64,000 bases of DNA from Nitrospirota bacterium (GCA_963663225.1 OY760142.1:2304001-2368000); one strand, 5' to 3'. Shown: positions 2,547 to 35,284, numbered from the stretch's first letter. Program-made: numbers and translations. Notes: a model not told the origin generated them from the letters alone.

Positions 2547-3452
2547 TTATGCAAAATACCGAAGATCTACCTTTTTCCGGCGGATAACGCTGTGATAGGT
2601 CTCGTCGGGATGGCCGAGAGCAATGACCGAATATATGGTTTCGTTCGCGGGGATGCCGAGTGACCGTTGAATGGCCGGGTCATTTTTCATGGCGGCAACG
2701 GCAAACCCGATCAGGCAGGAGCCAAGCCCCATGCTGTGTGCGGCCAGCAGAATATTCTGCGAGGCCAGAAGTGCGTCTTCTCCGGGGCAGCTTGCGCCGG
2801 GTTTTGAGCCCACGATAATGGCCGCTGTCGCACCATGAAAAAGCCTGTCCTTGCCGTCCTGCTCCCATTCCTCAAGCGCCTTTCGGACGGTTTCATAGTG
2901 GTCCCGGTAGTATGTTGCGAGTTCAGACTTTCCAATCAGTTTGAGAATGGTGCGAAGAACGGGGTTTGCCGCCTGGGCATTCAATGCTTTAAAATAATCA
3001 CCGATGCTGCGTGCAAAGGCGATGACGCCCTTTCTGTTCGGTACTATGGTGAATGTCCATTTTTGGCTGTTGGTTCCAGAGGGCGCGGTGACCCCGATCT
3101 TGACAAGATCTTCGAGAGCCGGTCTGTCCACCGGCTGGTCCGTGTAATTGCGGCAGGATCGCCGTGATGCCATAAACCGCTGCAAGTCAGCAGTGTTGAA
3201 CTTACCAAACGGGAGCCAGCGGCCGTCAGCGGTGAACGTCTGATATGTTCCCATTTCATCACTGAGCACGGGAATGTGTATGGCATGCTGAGGACAGGCA
3301 GCCTCGCAATGGCCGCATGCAAAAGAATCATTTTCGTTTTTTGCGGCCTTTCCATTTACCAGCGAAAGCGCCTGCCTCGGACAGACTTTGATGCAAATTC
3401 CGCATCCGGTGCAGCGATTTAGGTCTACTTCAACCTGTTTATTTTCCTTCAT
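2547..3452 (-). CDS. Nitroreductase with N-terminal 4Fe-4S ferredoxin domain
   Basis: CTGCGICIKVCP; second motif SFACGHCEAACP; RRSCRNY and APSGTNSQ nitroreductase motifs. Confidence 0.9.
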   Translation of the reverse strand: MKENKQVEVDLNRCTGCGICIKVCPRQALSLVNGKAAKNENDSFACGHCEAACPQHAIHIPVLSDEMGTYQTFTADGRWLPFGKFNTADLQRFMASRRSCRNYTDQPVDRPALEDLVKIGVTAPSGTNSQKWTFTIVPNRKGVIAFARSIGDYFKALNAQAANPVLRTILKLIGKSELATYYRDHYETVRKALEEWEQDGKDRLFHGATAAIIVGSKPGASCPGEDALLASQNILLAAHSMGLGSCLIGFAVAAMKNDPAIQRSLGIPANETIYSVIALGHPDETYHSVIRRKKVDLRYFA

Positions 3453-17930: not shown

Positions 17931-17933
17931 ATA

Positions 17934-18012
17934 GGTACCGTGTAACTGGCGTAAGTGGAATAAACCACAAGGGAGCACGGTTCTTCTGAAAAACAGCCGA
18001 ACGCCTGGGCAA
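17934..18012 (+). ncRNA. ZMP/ZTP riboswitch (pfl motif)
   Basis: P1 ACCGTG/CACGGT, ACTGGCG, P2 GTGG-AATAAA-CCAC, 3' GCCGAACGCCTGGGCA with GGCGT/ACGCC pseudoknot; upstream of pflB. Confidence 0.93.
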
Positions 18013-18049
18013 CCTGACACTATCTGTTGGGGGGGGCCAGGCGTTTTTT
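18000..18049 (+). terminator. Riboswitch expression-platform terminator
   Basis: AACGCCTGG/CCAGGCGTT stem with T run, overlapping the 3' aptamer hairpin. Confidence 0.85.
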
Positions 18050-29337: not shown

Positions 29338-30381
29338 TTATACCTGCTGATCAATCTCATTGTACGTAAGATGAGTAATGTCCCGGATGATTTTTATTAT
29401 GGCGTCAACATTGTTACCGCGTACCATGATGCCGAGAAGAAAGGGACGGTTCGGATGATAAACAATTCCGAATTCATATATCTGATAGAACTTTTGCTCC
29501 TTGTCGTCCGTCATGACAGTGATCAGCCGTCCCCCGTGCTTGCAGGCGATGCTGATATTCTGGGGGATGCCCGAAGCCATGCCGTCGCGAAAGGAGGACT
29601 GGGAAAGATATCGGAGGGCTTTTTCAGACATATCCTCCGAAAGGTAAGAAGCATTGAACAATACCCGGTAGAATGCGGCGAATGAGTTTAATGACAAAGA
29701 GTCTTCCTTTTTGTTCGGGTCATACTCGACGTCCAAATCTTTAAGGATTTTTTCAAACCGGGTGGACGGAAGATTCTTCTGCAGAAGGGTGTATGCGGCT
29801 GCATCATTATTGGCAATCATCCGGTAAATAAGGTCATTCACCGTATAGGAGTTTCCCGGTTCGATCTCTTTTGTCGGGAAAGGGGAGTCACGGTCAATAG
29901 TGCCTTCCTTGCCGGTGTAGGTTATGGTTTTGCGCAAAACCAGCGGGTTTGATTCTGCCCATTTGAAATATGCGATCATCAGCGGCAGTTTCCACTGGCT
30001 TTCTGACAAAAATTTTTCATTTCCTCCGATGCTGAACCGGTTTCCTGTGTTCATGTCCCGAAAGGAAACAGAAACCGTGGCGGCATCATGATTGTTAAGC
30101 GCGGTTTCGATCAGTGTGTTTATCTTGTATTTAAAGGGTTTCAATTCCTTGTTCTGAGAAGTTCCATCGGGTGTCTTCGATTCAATAGATGCTTTGATAA
30201 ATTTGAAGGTCCCTTCTGCGCGCCCCGATACTGCTTCGCTTTTGCCTGCGGGGAGAGGAGAAAACATGCTGAGCGCTGATCCGAGGAAGATGCCGAGTGC
30301 AAAAACACCCGCAACGAGGGTGAACATGAACTTTCGATTAATAGAAATCTTATCTTTTTTAAGAAGAGCATTATCTGACAT
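29338..30381 (-). CDS. Class A beta-lactamase-like serine hydrolase (divergent)
   Basis: N-terminal TM; SQWK (SxxK); GIPQNISIACKHG at the KTG position; YEFGIVY. Confidence 0.8.
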   Translation of the reverse strand: MSDNALLKKDKISINRKFMFTLVAGVFALGIFLGSALSMFSPLPAGKSEAVSGRAEGTFKFIKASIESKTPDGTSQNKELKPFKYKINTLIETALNNHDAATVSVSFRDMNTGNRFSIGGNEKFLSESQWKLPLMIAYFKWAESNPLVLRKTITYTGKEGTIDRDSPFPTKEIEPGNSYTVNDLIYRMIANNDAAAYTLLQKNLPSTRFEKILKDLDVEYDPNKKEDSLSLNSFAAFYRVLFNASYLSEDMSEKALRYLSQSSFRDGMASGIPQNISIACKHGGRLITVMTDDKEQKFYQIYEFGIVYHPNRPFLLGIMVRGNNVDAIIKIIRDITHLTYNEIDQQV

Positions 30382-30499
30382 ATTGATCTCAATAATATTA
30401 TTATATTACTCCTTTTCCAGAGTAAAAACAACCTACTCAAGTGCCTGTTTGTTGCCCGCTTTTGGGAGCTGCAGTCTGCTGGATATCTTCTCCTGTTGA

Positions 30500-30528
30500 T
30501 TGACAGGGAATAGAATCCGACGTATACT
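30500..30528 (+). promoter_or_regulatory. Near-consensus sigma70 promoter
   Basis: TTGACA-17 nt-TATACT. Confidence 0.8.
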
Positions 30529-30534
30529 AAAAAT

Positions 30535-30596
30535 AATTGGGATCTGCAAGGCGGACTGACGCGCCCGTTAGACTTCGAGTATCGGAGGGTTTCGGG
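30535..30596 (+). ncRNA. Structured 5' leader, candidate riboswitch aptamer
   Basis: Starts at the predicted TSS; P1 AATTGGG/CCCGTT enclosing TCTGC-AAG-GCGGA; second hairpin CTTCGA-GTA-TCGGAG; followed by a terminator. Confidence 0.6.
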
Positions 30597-30602
30597 AGAG
30601 AG

Positions 30603-30646
30603 GGCTGGTAAAAGTGCACGAAAAGCGCTTATGCCGGCCTTTTTTA
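30603..30646 (+). terminator. Leader (attenuator) terminator
   Basis: GGCTGGTA.AAGTGC/GCGCTT.TGCCGGCC followed by TTTTTT, with no gene between it and the promoter. Confidence 0.75.
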
Positions 30647-30744
30647 TTTTGATGGCTTACCCTTTGCCCGGCAAGTTGCCTGACTTTTTAGACAGCCCGT
30701 TGGCAAGAACCGTGGACTGCATAGTACGCTTCGCGAAGTGAAAA

Positions 30745-31539
30745 ATGTCAACTATAGTAATTTTTACAGATCTTGACGGCTCCCTGCTTGATTCCGATGC
30801 ATACTCTTTCGAGGATGCTTTGCCGGCCCTGTCGCTGCTTCGGAAAAGAAATATCCCGCTTATTTTGTGCTCAAGCAAGACCCGCACAGAGCTAGAGACC
30901 TATCGGAATAAGCTGGACAATCGACACCCGTTTATTGCTGAAAACGGTGCAGGAATATTTATTCCCAATAGGTATTTTCCATTTTTTATAAATGGGGAAA
31001 CGCGGGGTGGCTACCAGGTCATATCCTTTGGCATACCATATAAGGAGATCAGGAAACAGTTTACGCAGCTTCGAACGAGCCTTGGAGTGTCGGTACGGGG
31101 CTTCGGTGATATGACTGCAGAAGAGGTGTCGTCGCTGACAGGATTGACGAAGGATGAGGCAATGCTCGCGCTGCAACGGGACTATGAAGAACCTTTTATA
31201 TTTCCGGATGGGGTGAATGAACGTTTCCTGCATGCTATTGAGGCATCCGGTTTCAGATGGACTCAGGGAAGACTGTTTCATATGATGGGCGATTATCATA
31301 AGGGGAGGGCGGTAATCGAACTCAGGAATCTCTATGCTCAAAAAATCGAAACAGTTGCCACTATAGGGCTGGGAAACAGCCTGAATGATCTCTCCTTTCT
31401 CCGTTTGGTTGACCGGCCGGTGCTGATCAAAAACACAAACGGCACCCATGACCCTAGGGTAAACATACCGGGGCTTTATCGAACGAACGAAATCGGCCCC
31501 CGAGGATGGAATGAGGCCATACTGAAACTACTGCAATAA
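30745..31539 (+). CDS. Mannosyl/glucosyl-3-phosphoglycerate phosphatase (HAD-IIB)
   Basis: IFTDLDGSLL, CSSKTRTE, PFIAENG and GPRGWNEA. Confidence 0.92.
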   Translation: MSTIVIFTDLDGSLLDSDAYSFEDALPALSLLRKRNIPLILCSSKTRTELETYRNKLDNRHPFIAENGAGIFIPNRYFPFFINGETRGGYQVISFGIPYKEIRKQFTQLRTSLGVSVRGFGDMTAEEVSSLTGLTKDEAMLALQRDYEEPFIFPDGVNERFLHAIEASGFRWTQGRLFHMMGDYHKGRAVIELRNLYAQKIETVATIGLGNSLNDLSFLRLVDRPVLIKNTNGTHDPRVNIPGLYRTNEIGPRGWNEAILKLLQ

Positions 31540-31701
31540 CAGAGGCAGGTATGCAGCATTGTGATAAAACCGTCGGCAAGAACGCGATCTGCTAAGTATT
31601 CCCGCAAGAGAAGAGGCGGCACGGCAGAGAAGATTTGAGAGAGAAACGACTCTTTCTTTGCTATTATTAAAATGAAGATATACGGGTGGCGGGGCAGCCT
31701 T

Positions 31702-32961
31702 ATGGAAACTATTCCCATGCGGAAAGAGGTCCGTGATCAGTTGGACCGGATACGAACAGCTGACATTCTTGTCGGCATCCCGAGCTTTAATAATGCGCGG
31801 ACCATCGGGCATGTGGTCAAAGCCATTCAGGCAGGTCTTGTAAAATATTTTCCAGACTGCAAAGCAGTCTTGGTGAATTCAGACGGCGGTTCGACGGACA
31901 ACACGATGTCCATCGTGCGGGAAACCGTAATCGAGGATTTCCAATCCATACTTCTTCATCATCGTACGGCGCCTCTCTTTAAGCTGGCCGCCCCTTATTC
32001 AGGAATCCCCGGTAAAGGCAGCGCGTTTCGCATGATTTTTGAGATCGCGGACGCACTTGCCGTCAAGGCCTGCGCCGTGGTGGATTCGGATCTCAGGAGC
32101 ATTACTCCGGAATGGATTGAACTCCTTCTGAAGCCGGTGCTGCACGATGGGTTTGATTTTGTCGCTCCTTTCTATCACCGGCACAAATACGACGGAACAA
32201 TTACGAACAGTATTGTGTATCCTCTCACGCGGGCGCTGTATGGAAAGCGCGTTCGCCAGCCTATTGGAGGTGATTTTGGATTTTCAAGCAGCGTGGGGCG
32301 TTTTTTCCTTTCCAAAGATGTTTGGCAGACGGATGTAGCCAGATTCGGGATCGATATCTGGATGACGACTACTGCGATAGCCAATGATTTCAAAATAGCC
32401 CAGGCTTTTCTGGGTGCAAAGATCCATGATACCAAGGACCCCGGAGCTGATTTGAGCGCGATGCTCTATCAGGTAGTAGGGGCCGCTTTCGATCTGATGG
32501 AAGCATATCCTGACATATGGAAAACGGTGAGCGGTTCAGTTTCTGTCCCTACCTTTGGGTTCCAGTATACGGTGGGTCTGGAGCACGTGCCGGTCAACGT
32601 TTCAAGGATGATGACTATTTTTCAGAAAGGGATCAAGGATTTGCGTGATATATGGATCGATATTCTCGGAGCCGGTGATTTTGGACAAATCGAGCAGCTT
32701 GGCAGCATGTCTGAGCGGGAATTCAGATTTCCTCTTTCTCTCTGGACGCGTATTGTGTATGACTATGCTCTTGCCTATCATAAGAAGAAGCTTCCTCGCG
32801 AGCATCTGCTCAAGTCGTTAACACCGCTGTATCTGGGTAAAACAGCATCTTTTGTGATGGAAACAGAGGCCATGGAGCAGTGCGATGCCGAGGGGCAGGT
32901 TGAAAATTTGTGCGTGGAATTTGAAAAGAACAAGGATCACTTGATACACAACTGGCAATAA
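31702..32961 (+). CDS. Glucosylglycerate/mannosylglycerate synthase-like glycosyltransferase
   Basis: VGIPSFNN, NSDGGSTD, PGKGSAF, RHKYDGTITN, RQPIGGDFG and FGIDIWMTT. Confidence 0.8.
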   Translation: METIPMRKEVRDQLDRIRTADILVGIPSFNNARTIGHVVKAIQAGLVKYFPDCKAVLVNSDGGSTDNTMSIVRETVIEDFQSILLHHRTAPLFKLAAPYSGIPGKGSAFRMIFEIADALAVKACAVVDSDLRSITPEWIELLLKPVLHDGFDFVAPFYHRHKYDGTITNSIVYPLTRALYGKRVRQPIGGDFGFSSSVGRFFLSKDVWQTDVARFGIDIWMTTTAIANDFKIAQAFLGAKIHDTKDPGADLSAMLYQVVGAAFDLMEAYPDIWKTVSGSVSVPTFGFQYTVGLEHVPVNVSRMMTIFQKGIKDLRDIWIDILGAGDFGQIEQLGSMSEREFRFPLSLWTRIVYDYALAYHKKKLPREHLLKSLTPLYLGKTASFVMETEAMEQCDAEGQVENLCVEFEKNKDHLIHNWQ

Positions 32962-32979
32962 TTGACACGGAGGTGTGCC

Positions 32980-33678
32980 ATGCAGGATTTCCTTAATTTA
33001 ATTCTTGAACCGCTCAAAGGTATTTATACGGACTTTGCACATTTTTTCCCGAATCTGCTCGCAATGCTGATCATTATTGCGATTGGCATTCTGGTTGCCC
33101 GCCTGTTGAAGGCCATTCTGCTGAAACTGCTGAAAGCGATTAACTTTGACGTCTGGAGCGATAGAATGGGTTTTACCACGGTTATGCGGAAAGGGGACCT
33201 GTGGTCCAAGCCGTCGTCGGCAATCGGCTCGTTTTTTTACTGGCTTTTGATTATCGTGGCGTTCATGGCGGGGCTCAGCGCTCTGAAAATTCAGGCTATT
33301 GACAATCTTGTAGCGCAATTTGTTCTGTATATTCCCCGGGTGCTGTCAGCCGTGCTGATTGTCATTGCAGGCTATATCATAACGGGCTTTATCGGCAGGG
33401 CGCTTTTAATCTCGGCGGTCAACCGGGGCTATCATTTTGCCAAACTGCTTGCGGAAGCGGCTCGTCTGTTATTGATTGTGTTGTTTATCGCAATGGCACT
33501 GGAACAGCTCCAGGTCGCACCGGGGATCGTTATTTCAGCGTTCTCCATCATTTTTGGAGGGATTGTTCTGGCGCTGGCAATTGCCTTCGGCGTGGGAGGA
33601 ATCGACGCCGCGAAGAAAATCATAGAACATAAGACAACCCAGACAACCGATGAAAAAAAGGATATGGAGCATATTTAA
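32980..33678 (+). CDS. Conserved TM-helix (MscS/CmpX-like) membrane protein
   Basis: Repeated P.(L/V)..A/M..I helices, LEQLQV and ALAIAFGVGG. Confidence 0.8.
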   Translation: MQDFLNLILEPLKGIYTDFAHFFPNLLAMLIIIAIGILVARLLKAILLKLLKAINFDVWSDRMGFTTVMRKGDLWSKPSSAIGSFFYWLLIIVAFMAGLSALKIQAIDNLVAQFVLYIPRVLSAVLIVIAGYIITGFIGRALLISAVNRGYHFAKLLAEAARLLLIVLFIAMALEQLQVAPGIVISAFSIIFGGIVLALAIAFGVGGIDAAKKIIEHKTTQTTDEKKDMEHI

Positions 33679-33687
33679 GGAGAGAGC

Positions 33688-34896
33688 ATGTCGGATTTTT
33701 ATCAGACAGGGGTAATTACCACGCTGCATAATTTAGGGAAACCGTCTCTGGAGCGCCTGGAACAGGAGCTGAAAGCATATTCACAGATGCGCCCGATAGC
33801 CCTGGTGCTTCCTGCCCTTTATTCCGAATTCGAAGGTCCGGCAATGCCGAAGATAATCGAAGAACTCTCCAAAGTAAAATATCTAGCAGAAATAGTTCTC
33901 GTGATTGACAAAGCCACGGAAAAAGAATTTCTTCGTGCAAAATCTTTTATGTCGCCCATTTCCACTGAGGTTAATATTGTTTACAACGATGGTAAACGGA
34001 TCAGTGAGATCTATGATACGCTCGCTCGGAATAAACTTGATGCGGGACAGCGCGGAAAGGGCCGATCAGTCTGGCTGGCGTACGGGTATGTACTTGCCTG
34101 CGGCCGTTCGGACATTATTGCACTTCATGATTGTGATATTTTGACCTACAGCCGCGAAATGCTGGCGCGGCTGTGCTATCCGGTGGCAAACCCGAACCTT
34201 GATTATGTATTTTGCAAGGGTTTCTACAGCAGAGTATCGGACAGAATGCACGGACGGGTGACCAGACTTCTCATAACACCACTTATCCGGTCTCTCCAGG
34301 CACTGCATGGCGCACATCCGTTTCTCAGCTTTCTGGACAGTTTCCGCTATCCGTTGTCGGGTGAATTTTGCATGATCACGGACATGGCCCGCGTGAACAG
34401 AATTCCCTGGGACTGGGGGCTGGAAGTCGGTTCTCTCGCAGAAGTGCACCGCAACTATTCGCCGCGTCGGATTTGCCAGGTGGACATAGCTGCTACGTAT
34501 GAACATAAGCATCAGGACCTTTCTGCAGAAGATCCGGAAAAAGGTCTTATGAAAATGACTGTTGATATTTGCAAATCCATATTCAGGACGCTGGCTTCGG
34601 AAGGAGTAACTTTTTCCGACGGCTTCTTCAAATCTCTTTCAGTTTCCTATATGCGGTATGCGGAAGATACGATCGGAAAATATGAGGCTGATGCGGCTAT
34701 AAACGGACTCCTGTTCGACAGACATGAAGAGGCAAAAGCGGTTGACGTGTTCGCAAAAGCCATTGCCCTGGGAGCGCAACGCTACATGGAAAACCCGCTG
34801 GCAATGCCGCTTATCCCGAACTGGAGCAGGGTCACCTCCGCCATCCCCGGCATTCTGCCGATGCTCAAAAAAGCGGTTGAGGAGGATAATAAATAA
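33688..34896 (+). CDS. Glucosyl-3-phosphoglycerate synthase-like glycosyltransferase
   Basis: MSDFYQTGVITTLH, GKGRSVW, ALHDCDI, FCKGFYSR, RYPLSGEF and DWGLEVG. Confidence 0.85.
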   Translation: MSDFYQTGVITTLHNLGKPSLERLEQELKAYSQMRPIALVLPALYSEFEGPAMPKIIEELSKVKYLAEIVLVIDKATEKEFLRAKSFMSPISTEVNIVYNDGKRISEIYDTLARNKLDAGQRGKGRSVWLAYGYVLACGRSDIIALHDCDILTYSREMLARLCYPVANPNLDYVFCKGFYSRVSDRMHGRVTRLLITPLIRSLQALHGAHPFLSFLDSFRYPLSGEFCMITDMARVNRIPWDWGLEVGSLAEVHRNYSPRRICQVDIAATYEHKHQDLSAEDPEKGLMKMTVDICKSIFRTLASEGVTFSDGFFKSLSVSYMRYAEDTIGKYEADAAINGLLFDRHEEAKAVDVFAKAIALGAQRYMENPLAMPLIPNWSRVTSAIPGILPMLKKAVEEDNK

Positions 34897-35074
34897 AAGC
34901 GCGGATTTGCTCGGCATGCACGAAAACGGCTGAATAGAGAGAGCATATATTTACCATGAATCAGCAACTTTTTACTTGCTCAAAAACACACATCATACTA
35001 TAGTAATATTTGCTTATGCAACACTGTACTTGCATTGTGCAGTGAATTGTGTTCGTAGGATGAAGGAGTTCCTT

Positions 35075-35284
35075 ATGGCTGAAACAACTCTAAGAATATC
35101 GGGAATGAGCTGTGCTCATTGTGTAATGAGAGTAAGCAAAGCGCTCAAGGCGATACCCGGCGTTACTGATGCACAGGTTGATCTTCAGAAGGCAGAGGCA
35201 CAGGTTTCATATGATGAGGCCAGGGTGGGTGTCGAAAAGCTCATCGAAGCGGTTGGAGAAGCCGGTTATCAGGCCAATTCATGA
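35075..35284 (+). CDS. copZ: Heavy-metal-associated (CopZ-like) chaperone
   Basis: GMSCAHC motif and C-terminal EAGY; AAGGAG RBS. Confidence 0.85.
   Translation: MAETTLRISGMSCAHCVMRVSKALKAIPGVTDAQVDLQKAEAQVSYDEARVGVEKLIEAVGEAGYQANS

Follow-up and report, generated by a model that had tools for sequence, protein, structure and literature searches.

Positions 30551-30650 of the window, by which we mean the whole 64,000-nucleotide stretch of Nitrospirota DNA analysed here, probably hold one copy of a cis-acting leader RNA not described before, which we see as a candidate for a structurally new class of riboswitch that controls read-through into salt-stress genes; this assignment was made without binding or regulation data, and no RNA-seq run on record covers the locus. 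That the motif is a cis-regulatory leader we state with high confidence. Na+ is favoured as the ligand because Na+ exchangers predominate among the first genes behind the motif, and, ligand binding being inferred, the case for Na+ specifically falls a little short of being probable. Possible, and still slightly doubtful in our judgement, is a wider proposal for which direct sensing is again an inference: alkali-cation riboswitches would gain a third class, unrelated in structure to the others and, at a minimal core of 34 nt, among the smallest, which would directly sense Na+ or possibly K+ or ionic strength and through which one RNA would wire a salt-stress regulon in Nitrospirota and some neighbours. 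To our knowledge, no riboswitch is known for K+ or ionic strength. The regulon of such a third class would comprise Na+ extrusion, Na+/Ca2+ exchange, glycosyl-glycerate and trehalose synthesis and an unknown 141-aa protein. An earlier note on this DNA had proposed a transcriptional riboswitch, and the conserved structured RNA with a terminator before Na+ and osmolyte genes described below supports it as a candidate, its ligand and antiterminator being inferred.

The leader in the window consists of the following elements:

30500-30528, plus strand: sigma-70-type promoter TTGACA-17-TATACT (TTGACA at 30500-30505, TATACT at 30523-30528), with 11 of 12 matches
30535-30550, plus strand: variable, unconserved 5′ leader holding the AAUUGGG and UCUGC arms (alignments)
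30551-30563, plus strand: near-invariant 5′ block GCGGACUGACGCG, numbered G1-G13 (alignments and CM matches)
30564-30596, plus strand: P hairpin, closing CCCG (30564-67) with CGGG (30593-96), inner part variable
30596-30602, plus strand: conserved 3′ block GAGAG (consensus GARAG) and the 2-nt linker AG (alignments)
30603-30650, plus strand: intrinsic terminator, hairpin at 30603-30639 (GGCUGG...CCGGCC) and U-tract at 30640-30650 (RNAfold)

The promoter, which the earlier note had called near-perfect, is the best of four promoter-like sites in 30000-31200, a region in which shuffled sequences give 1.7 ± 1.3, and a transcript start near 30535 is inferred from it. Upstream of the promoter lies a divergent gene for a class-A beta-lactamase-fold protein (PF13354; 29338-30381, minus strand). 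Folding of 30535-30650 with RNAfold gave a minimum free energy (MFE) of -47.4 kcal/mol (z = -4.09), equalled by none of 200 shuffles, and the intrinsic terminator previously placed at 30603-30646 was recovered as a hairpin with a U-tract. RNAfold lengthens this hairpin to 30597-30645 via A/G:U pairs, with UUUUUUAUUUU then at 30640-50; our simple terminator scan did not list it, the loop exceeding the 8-nt limit of that scan. The leader had also been described as free of ORFs, and we found none of at least 40 aa on the plus strand between 30535 and the ATG at 30745.

A BLAST search with the leader as query detected it in six of 41 relatives, one genome carrying two copies. A first CM (R1), built from seven copies, matched 31 of the 64 genomes of the window's family (18 of 32 of high quality), with 40 matches in total and up to three per genome; the order-level search comprised the same 64 genomes. 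A second CM (R2), restricted to the core, built on 45 sequences and lacking the terminator, found one copy in the window's own genome and, across the phylum, matched 25 of 151 sampled genomes at E ≤ 0.01, or 20 of 151 once five chance matches in five separate genomes are subtracted. By family, with the chance matches included, R2 matched 14/27 genomes in f1, 4/6 in f2, 2/12 in f3, 1/11 in f8 and 3/27 in f10, and all matches in f3 (two) and f10 (three) are among the five chance ones. The motif is carried, beyond the window's family, by two other families of its phylum, and in a second phylum group 4 of 151 genomes have it, the three seeds among them. An exact-pattern scan over the genomes of 185,579 species returned 78 stretches, on which 45 R1 matches at E ≤ 0.01 lie; nearly all of these 45 are in records labelled Nitrospirota or Nitrospirae, the few others Deltaproteobacteria, Desulfuromonadales or Thermodesulfobacteriota, and three of the differently labelled genomes belong to the other phylum group. 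Stretches without an R1 match, from Streptomyces and other high-GC genomes, were rejected as chance matches. The same judgement was passed on the weak CM matches L138-L142 and L070, the last of these being one of the 45, and on the pattern match L208, which lack a terminator and the gene context. The metagenome pattern scan returned 112 stretches, and genomes and metagenomes pooled gave 132 distinct instances with 127 distinct cores. Both pattern scans fixed the conserved blocks, so that conservation figures derived from them are circular and only the CM searches are unbiased; furthermore, the instances are not phylogenetically independent.

In the alignment, a variable leader is followed by the invariant GCGGACUGACGCG, a free hairpin closed by CC(C/U)G/CGGG, GA(A/G)AG, a 2-nt linker and the terminator. 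The consensus core reads GCGGACKGACGCG (GCGGAC(U/G)GACGCG, 13 nt), then a variable hairpin closed by CCYG/CRGG, then GARAG, with the terminator 1-2 nt further on; it measures 34-65 nt, the smallest version (~34 nt) having a 4-bp stem and a 7-nt loop. Among the CM matches examined, the only variants of the 5′ block were A5>U (L035, L136), C10>G (L147) and one copy with two changes (L037). The four closing pairs of the P stem are standard, U-G pairs included, in 98.3% of 405 cells from 102 sequences, 11 cells being changed on both sides (CCUG/CAGG, CUUG/CAAG), a level reached in none of 500 shuffles, and sliding the register lowers pairing to at most 64%. The 127 distinct hairpins are 15-45 nt long and none of them is branched; their median is 10 bp and their mean z -2.16. 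In the terminator stem, the pairs t4-t7 covary (G-C to A-U and back), whereas the first three, GGC/GCC, are fixed. The comparison of related leaders for covariation that the earlier note had suggested came out in favour of a conserved structure, in the P stem and in the terminator, and the riboswitch criterion of a conserved structured 5′ leader with covariation-supported helices is met by these two.

The earlier note had further described two mutually exclusive folds, and this pair is not conserved. The first, AAUUGGG/CCCGUU around UCUGC-AAG-GCGGA, fails because the 5′ leader that it uses varies between relatives, both in what it reads and in how long it is; another family has almost no 5′ leader, its -10 box standing only ~7-10 nt before the motif (GCGGAC). 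The second, CCCG...CGGG around CUUCGA-GUA-UCGGAG, is the P hairpin, which is conserved, covaries and is part of the window MFE, where it coexists with the terminator.

The U-G pairs and the compensation on one strand show that the structure acts at the RNA level, on the gene strand. They bear on the notion that the motif is fortuitous or a DNA-level operator, with the block serving as a transcription-factor site and the hairpins incidental. The block does lie just downstream of the promoter, where repressors often bind; but it is not palindromic, U-G pairs and double changes, confined to one strand, preserve the pairing of the stem, and the hairpin varies between 15 and 45 nt while its flanks stay fixed, so that we find this explanation scarcely credible. 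Three further ideas about the core gained no support. A GCG/CGC mini-hairpin within the 5′ block is invariant, and the sole C10>G variant (L147) breaks its pairing without compensation; a leader peptide is contradicted by a start codon that is not conserved and a hairpin length that is not a multiple of three; and for pairing between the linker and either A9/G8 or the 2 nt that precede the block no pattern emerged.

A strict terminator test, requiring a hairpin flush with at least four U and a dG of at most -8, was passed by 116 of the 132 pooled instances. The 16 failures comprise two cut by contig ends, one that diverges past the core (L086), one apparent chance match (L208) and 12 in which hairpins are present and the U-run is interrupted or an internal T-run was missed by the rule. 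L086 (minus strand, motif near 3056-3189) has its leader and core in common with L043, diverges after GGGCU and lacks a terminator, as could result from a chimeric assembly or from rearrangement of the copy. Among 127 instances the left arm of the terminator reads GGCUGG in 81, GGCCAG in 33 and GGCUAG in 10, and never GGCCGG. Unequal conservation of the two terminator arms was looked for and not seen. A promoter-like site lies upstream in 83 of the 129 instances with at least 60 nt of flank, 24 of these scoring 12/12.

Downstream, a median of 26 nt separates the U-tract from the start codon, and the distance is at most 30 nt in 62 of 105 instances, leaving in most cases no room for another promoter, and the genes are therefore driven by read-through from the leader. 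The criterion that a riboswitch should have an intrinsic terminator between aptamer and coding region without a separate promoter is met. These distances also bear on whether the locus might instead encode a stand-alone trans-acting sRNA of ~110 nt, with the conserved single-stranded block as its seed, the terminator as its end and the operon under its own promoter. Its layout would be alike (strong promoter, unpaired conserved block, hairpin and U-tailed terminator), and the window's own gap from terminator to ATG is 98 nt. Against this, the promoter scan found no promoter-like site between 30646 and 30745, and a separate promoter past 30646 was what the earlier note had named as refuting its riboswitch; up to three copies occur per genome, each directly before co-oriented salt-stress genes of different families, and the short gaps elsewhere argue in the same direction. 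We regard a stand-alone sRNA as very improbable and retain the cis-regulatory leader.

The operon behind the leader in the window contains four genes:

30745-31539, plus strand: first gene, MPGP-family HAD phosphatase of the glycosyl-3-phosphoglycerate phosphatase type (TIGR01486, 229 bits against a cut-off of 164.75)
31672-32961, plus strand: GT2 glycosyltransferase of 429 aa, weakly GpgS-like
32962-33678, plus strand: membrane protein of 238 aa with mechanosensitive-channel TM helices, MscS-like (PF05552; NF033912 under its cut-off)
33688-34896, plus strand: GpgS-like glucosyl-3-phosphoglycerate synthase homologue of 402 aa (NF040724, E = 2e-110, 369 bits, under the 700-bit equivalog cut-off)

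The osmolyte-synthesis operon that the earlier note had named is recognisable in the MPGP-family phosphatase and the two GpgS-like glycosyltransferases. Judged by these profile matches it is a predicted osmolyte operon of the glycosyl-glycerate type, and the scores do not distinguish glucosylglycerate, mannosylglycerate and mannosylglucosylglycerate. The MscS-like protein sits between the two glycosyltransferases in relatives also, and the operon is followed by a gene for a CopZ-like HMA-domain protein (34976-35284, plus strand).

Across the 132 instances, the first same-strand gene was recognised in 108, an unrecognised ORF in 12 and lost to a contig end in 12. The recognised first genes are:

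Na_H_Exchanger (PF00999): 32 instances
141-aa protein without a family: 25 instances
MPGP phosphatase: 20 instances
CitMHS/NhaD-like transporter (PF03600): 14 instances
Na_Ca_ex (PF01699): 8 instances
CBS-domain protein: 3 instances
GpgS: 2 instances
Usp: 2 instances
DUF5752 or TreT: 2 instances

In seven of the 12 unrecognised cases (L057, L111, L158, L168, L187, L205, L257) a recognised gene follows farther down; the ORF in L057, L111, L158 and L168 looks like a spurious call just before the recognised gene, while the 169-173-aa ORF common to L187 and L205, which has no family, we take to be a real gene. L206 and L207 have a first gene for a ~210-aa protein in common; by profile scan the copy in L207 is a beta-class carbonic anhydrase (PF00484), an enzyme that would bring bicarbonate/CO2 chemistry into the regulon. 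Farther along, the operons contain, among others, Na_Ca_ex, DUF4147 (glycerate-kinase-like), GT429, the MscS-like protein, OtsA and P139-OmpA-M23. The gene of the 141-aa family (for example L035:1029-1451, minus strand), which ranks second among those lying immediately behind the motif, is often followed by one for a 155-aa membrane-like protein; no Pfam or NCBIfam family covers the 141-aa protein, and the ESM Atlas holds only 'hypothetical protein' clusters for it, from Nitrospirota and Thermodesulfobacteriota. A second motif copy in a genome of the same genus (L007:1726-3146, plus strand) precedes DUF5752 and a TreT-type trehalose synthase, a gene order that would tie DUF5752 to salt stress and trehalose. 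The link to ions and osmolarity suspected from the window alone thus extends to Na+ transporters and osmolyte-synthesis genes of unrelated families, and the riboswitch criterion of one RNA before several non-homologous genes of one physiological theme is met.

The same genes could in principle answer to another osmotic signal, the riboswitch then binding c-di-AMP (probably as an OFF switch), K+, Li+ or a metabolite such as glutamate, or responding to ionic strength. The genome encodes a DAC-domain diadenylate cyclase and has no ydaO-type riboswitch, and c-di-AMP therefore stays a possible ligand. Compatible-solute genes are classic targets of c-di-AMP and K+ according to the accessible portions of PMC9337991 and PMC5737381, and a few operons have M23 peptidase and OmpA genes farther on. 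Na+/H+ and Na+/Ca2+ exchangers are nevertheless the most frequent first genes, no K+ or osmolyte uptake genes occur among the classified first and downstream genes, and a minimal core of 34 nt is small for a dinucleotide. An OFF switch would in addition need a ligand-free antiterminator, and none was found. We consider a signal of this kind distinctly unlikely.

With Na+ as the preferred signal, regulation can be pictured as follows. By default the hairpin and the terminator would both form and transcription would stop at ~30646. The terminator begins with GGC, and the salt signal, most likely Na+, would order the 5′ block against these bases, the linker and GARAG. The left arm of the terminator would thereby be held back, and RNA polymerase would read on into the osmolyte operon. 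A default fold that terminates, together with the absence of a ligand-free antiterminator, favours an ON switch, a polarity that also suits genes required under high salt. Four points are inference only: that a ligand binds directly, which ligand it is, the ON polarity and the antiterminator pairing.

Simple base pairing of the 5′ block with either terminator arm was tried as antiterminator and rejected: the duplex energies of -9.1 and -9.3 kcal/mol are no better than the -10.2 kcal/mol of shuffled blocks, and there is no excess complementarity. By elimination, the 5′ block is the only conserved unpaired partner for the left arm of the terminator. We have drawn an outer helix in which C2 would pair with t5, G3 with t4 and G4 with t3, A5 would be bulged, and C6 and K7 would pair with t2 and t1; G8 and A9 would form an internal loop opposite the linker, and C10-G59, G11.A58, C12-R57 and G13.A56 would lead into the P stem. 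Under the wider proposal of a third class, the irregular, G.A-rich helix adjoining the terminator would be the ion pocket. In 102 sequences the pairs G4-C, C6-G, G3-Y and C10-G are each kept in 101, U7-G in 69 and C12-G in 51; the columns barely vary, and no compensatory change is seen. The outer helix is present in the MFE of the truncated window RNA 30551-30612 (RNAfold), whereas truncated window RNAs fold no better than shuffles (z = -0.3 to -0.9); of 116 truncated transcripts, 30 show pairing between the aptamer region and the first six bases of the terminator, with the 5′ block accounting for about half of those paired bases. Positions K7 and R57 are associated, with (U,A) in 55, (G,G) in 33, (U,G) in 30 and (G,A) in 9 instances (odds ratio 6.7, uncorrected for phylogeny), which would fit a stability trade-off within one helix and may equally reflect shared ancestry. 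The capture of the terminator's left arm by this outer helix remains a hypothesis, possible and rather doubtful at present.

The lack of covariation-supported pairing in the conserved flanks leaves room for protein-dependent attenuation, in which the 5′ block and GARAG bind an unidentified protein that acts as an antiterminator or promotes termination, as in ANTAR, BglG/LicT or PyrR systems, and it is the protein that senses salt. Near-invariant purine-rich stretches flanking a free hairpin would suit such a system, the 13-nt invariant stretch could equally be a protein-binding site, and the element lies directly against the terminator as protein-bound antiterminator sites do. Yet no candidate regulator travels with the motif. 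The 141-aa protein, its commonest unknown neighbour, was rejected as a trans factor, a single query having failed to find it in the window's own genome. The hexaloop GACKGA of the possible mini-hairpin lacks the A1/G4 pattern of ANTAR targets, and a single small RNA serving unrelated families of genes is characteristic of riboswitches. We therefore hold protein-dependent attenuation to be unlikely, though worth keeping in mind, and prefer a riboswitch.

Were this reading correct, it would establish direct RNA control of trehalose synthesis and of the synthesis of compatible solutes of the glucosylglycerate/mannosylglycerate type, assign a role in salt stress to the 141-aa family, DUF5752 and the MscS-like protein, and open a way into the physiology of uncultured Nitrospirota from groundwater and sediment. 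As far as the available part of PMC9337991 goes, Na+ sensing has been reported for only one protein (NhaR) and two related RNA classes, and its authors expected further Na+ sensors. A new small aptamer would be a second, independent RNA solution to selective cation recognition, useful for structures and biosensors.

The leader was compared with Rfam 15, a check that the earlier note had proposed with DUF1646, nhaA-I and ydaO in mind. At E ≤ 10 neither these nor any other Rfam family matched the leader in 30380-30760, and at E ≤ 1 nothing matched the motif in 16 diverse other instances. RF03071 (Na+-I, DUF1646; gathering score 40.5 bits) had no match in the whole genome at E ≤ 1 and none on the window leader or the 16 instances, and neither RF03057 (nhaA-I) nor RF00379 (c-di-AMP) matched the genome or the leader. 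As controls, RF03071 found true members at 55.6 and 47.5 bits and RF00379 one at 100.4 bits. The view that this is not the ydaO aptamer consequently holds for window and genome alike, and so does the suspicion that the motif might be new rather than DUF1646, there being no RF03071 match and a different layout. The sole match at gathering score in the whole window is a ZTP (pfl) riboswitch (RF01750, 65.2 bits) at 17932-18017 on the plus strand. Literature searches, which extended in part only to titles and the openings of abstracts, gave no description of the motif; PMC11109978 lists other candidates in the portion available, and the supplementary lists of that paper and of PMC5737381 were not covered and may hold an unnamed equivalent.

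Among known systems, the protein-bound antiterminator RNAs (ANTAR, RAT/BglG) are alike in having a short conserved RNA element abutting a terminator; they differ in that for our motif no cognate protein has been identified and in that it does not overlap the terminator sequence. Closer in genes and logic is Na+-I (RF03071): the accessible text of PMC9337991 and PMC5737381 describes a small aptamer followed by an intrinsic terminator, with presumed ON logic, before genes for Na+/H+ antiporters including NhaD, other cation transporters and osmoprotectant synthesis. Its consensus, in contrast, is GGUUGGGC...GCUUUCAAGA-linker-ggCUuCugGGGUGgGaAGcc with two hairpins and a conserved P2 loop, and neither the sequence nor the layout is shared with GCGGACKGACGCG-hairpin-GARAG. 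Our motif, with its one variable hairpin between conserved flanks and its unconserved loop, does not meet the structural criterion for Na+-I, which asks for a conserved base and a bulge in P1, an unstructured linker and a conserved GGGUG-type loop in P2. We encountered true Na+-I examples in a different phylum group (2 of 121 sampled genomes), and three Firmicutes genomes gave only a sub-threshold Na+-I match. One locus of that other phylum group (L261:1304-1554, minus strand) is a natural tandem with a Na+-I aptamer directly upstream of a c-di-AMP riboswitch, an arrangement published for Dehalobacter in PMC9337991, as far as that source was accessible. The classes Li+-I/Na+-II (nhaA-I, RF03057) and Li+-II (nhaA-II) are similar, judging from the part of PMC9646797 at hand, in being leaders of cation-transporter genes with small aptamers and activation by alkali cations; they are associated mainly with nhaA genes, whereas behind our motif stand CPA-type, NhaD-like and CaCA exchangers and osmolyte genes. 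Finally, the c-di-AMP riboswitch (ydaO, RF00379) likewise controls osmotic-stress genes through termination, but does so with a pseudo-symmetric aptamer of 134 positions and a regulon centred on K+ and osmolyte uptake and on cell-wall genes.
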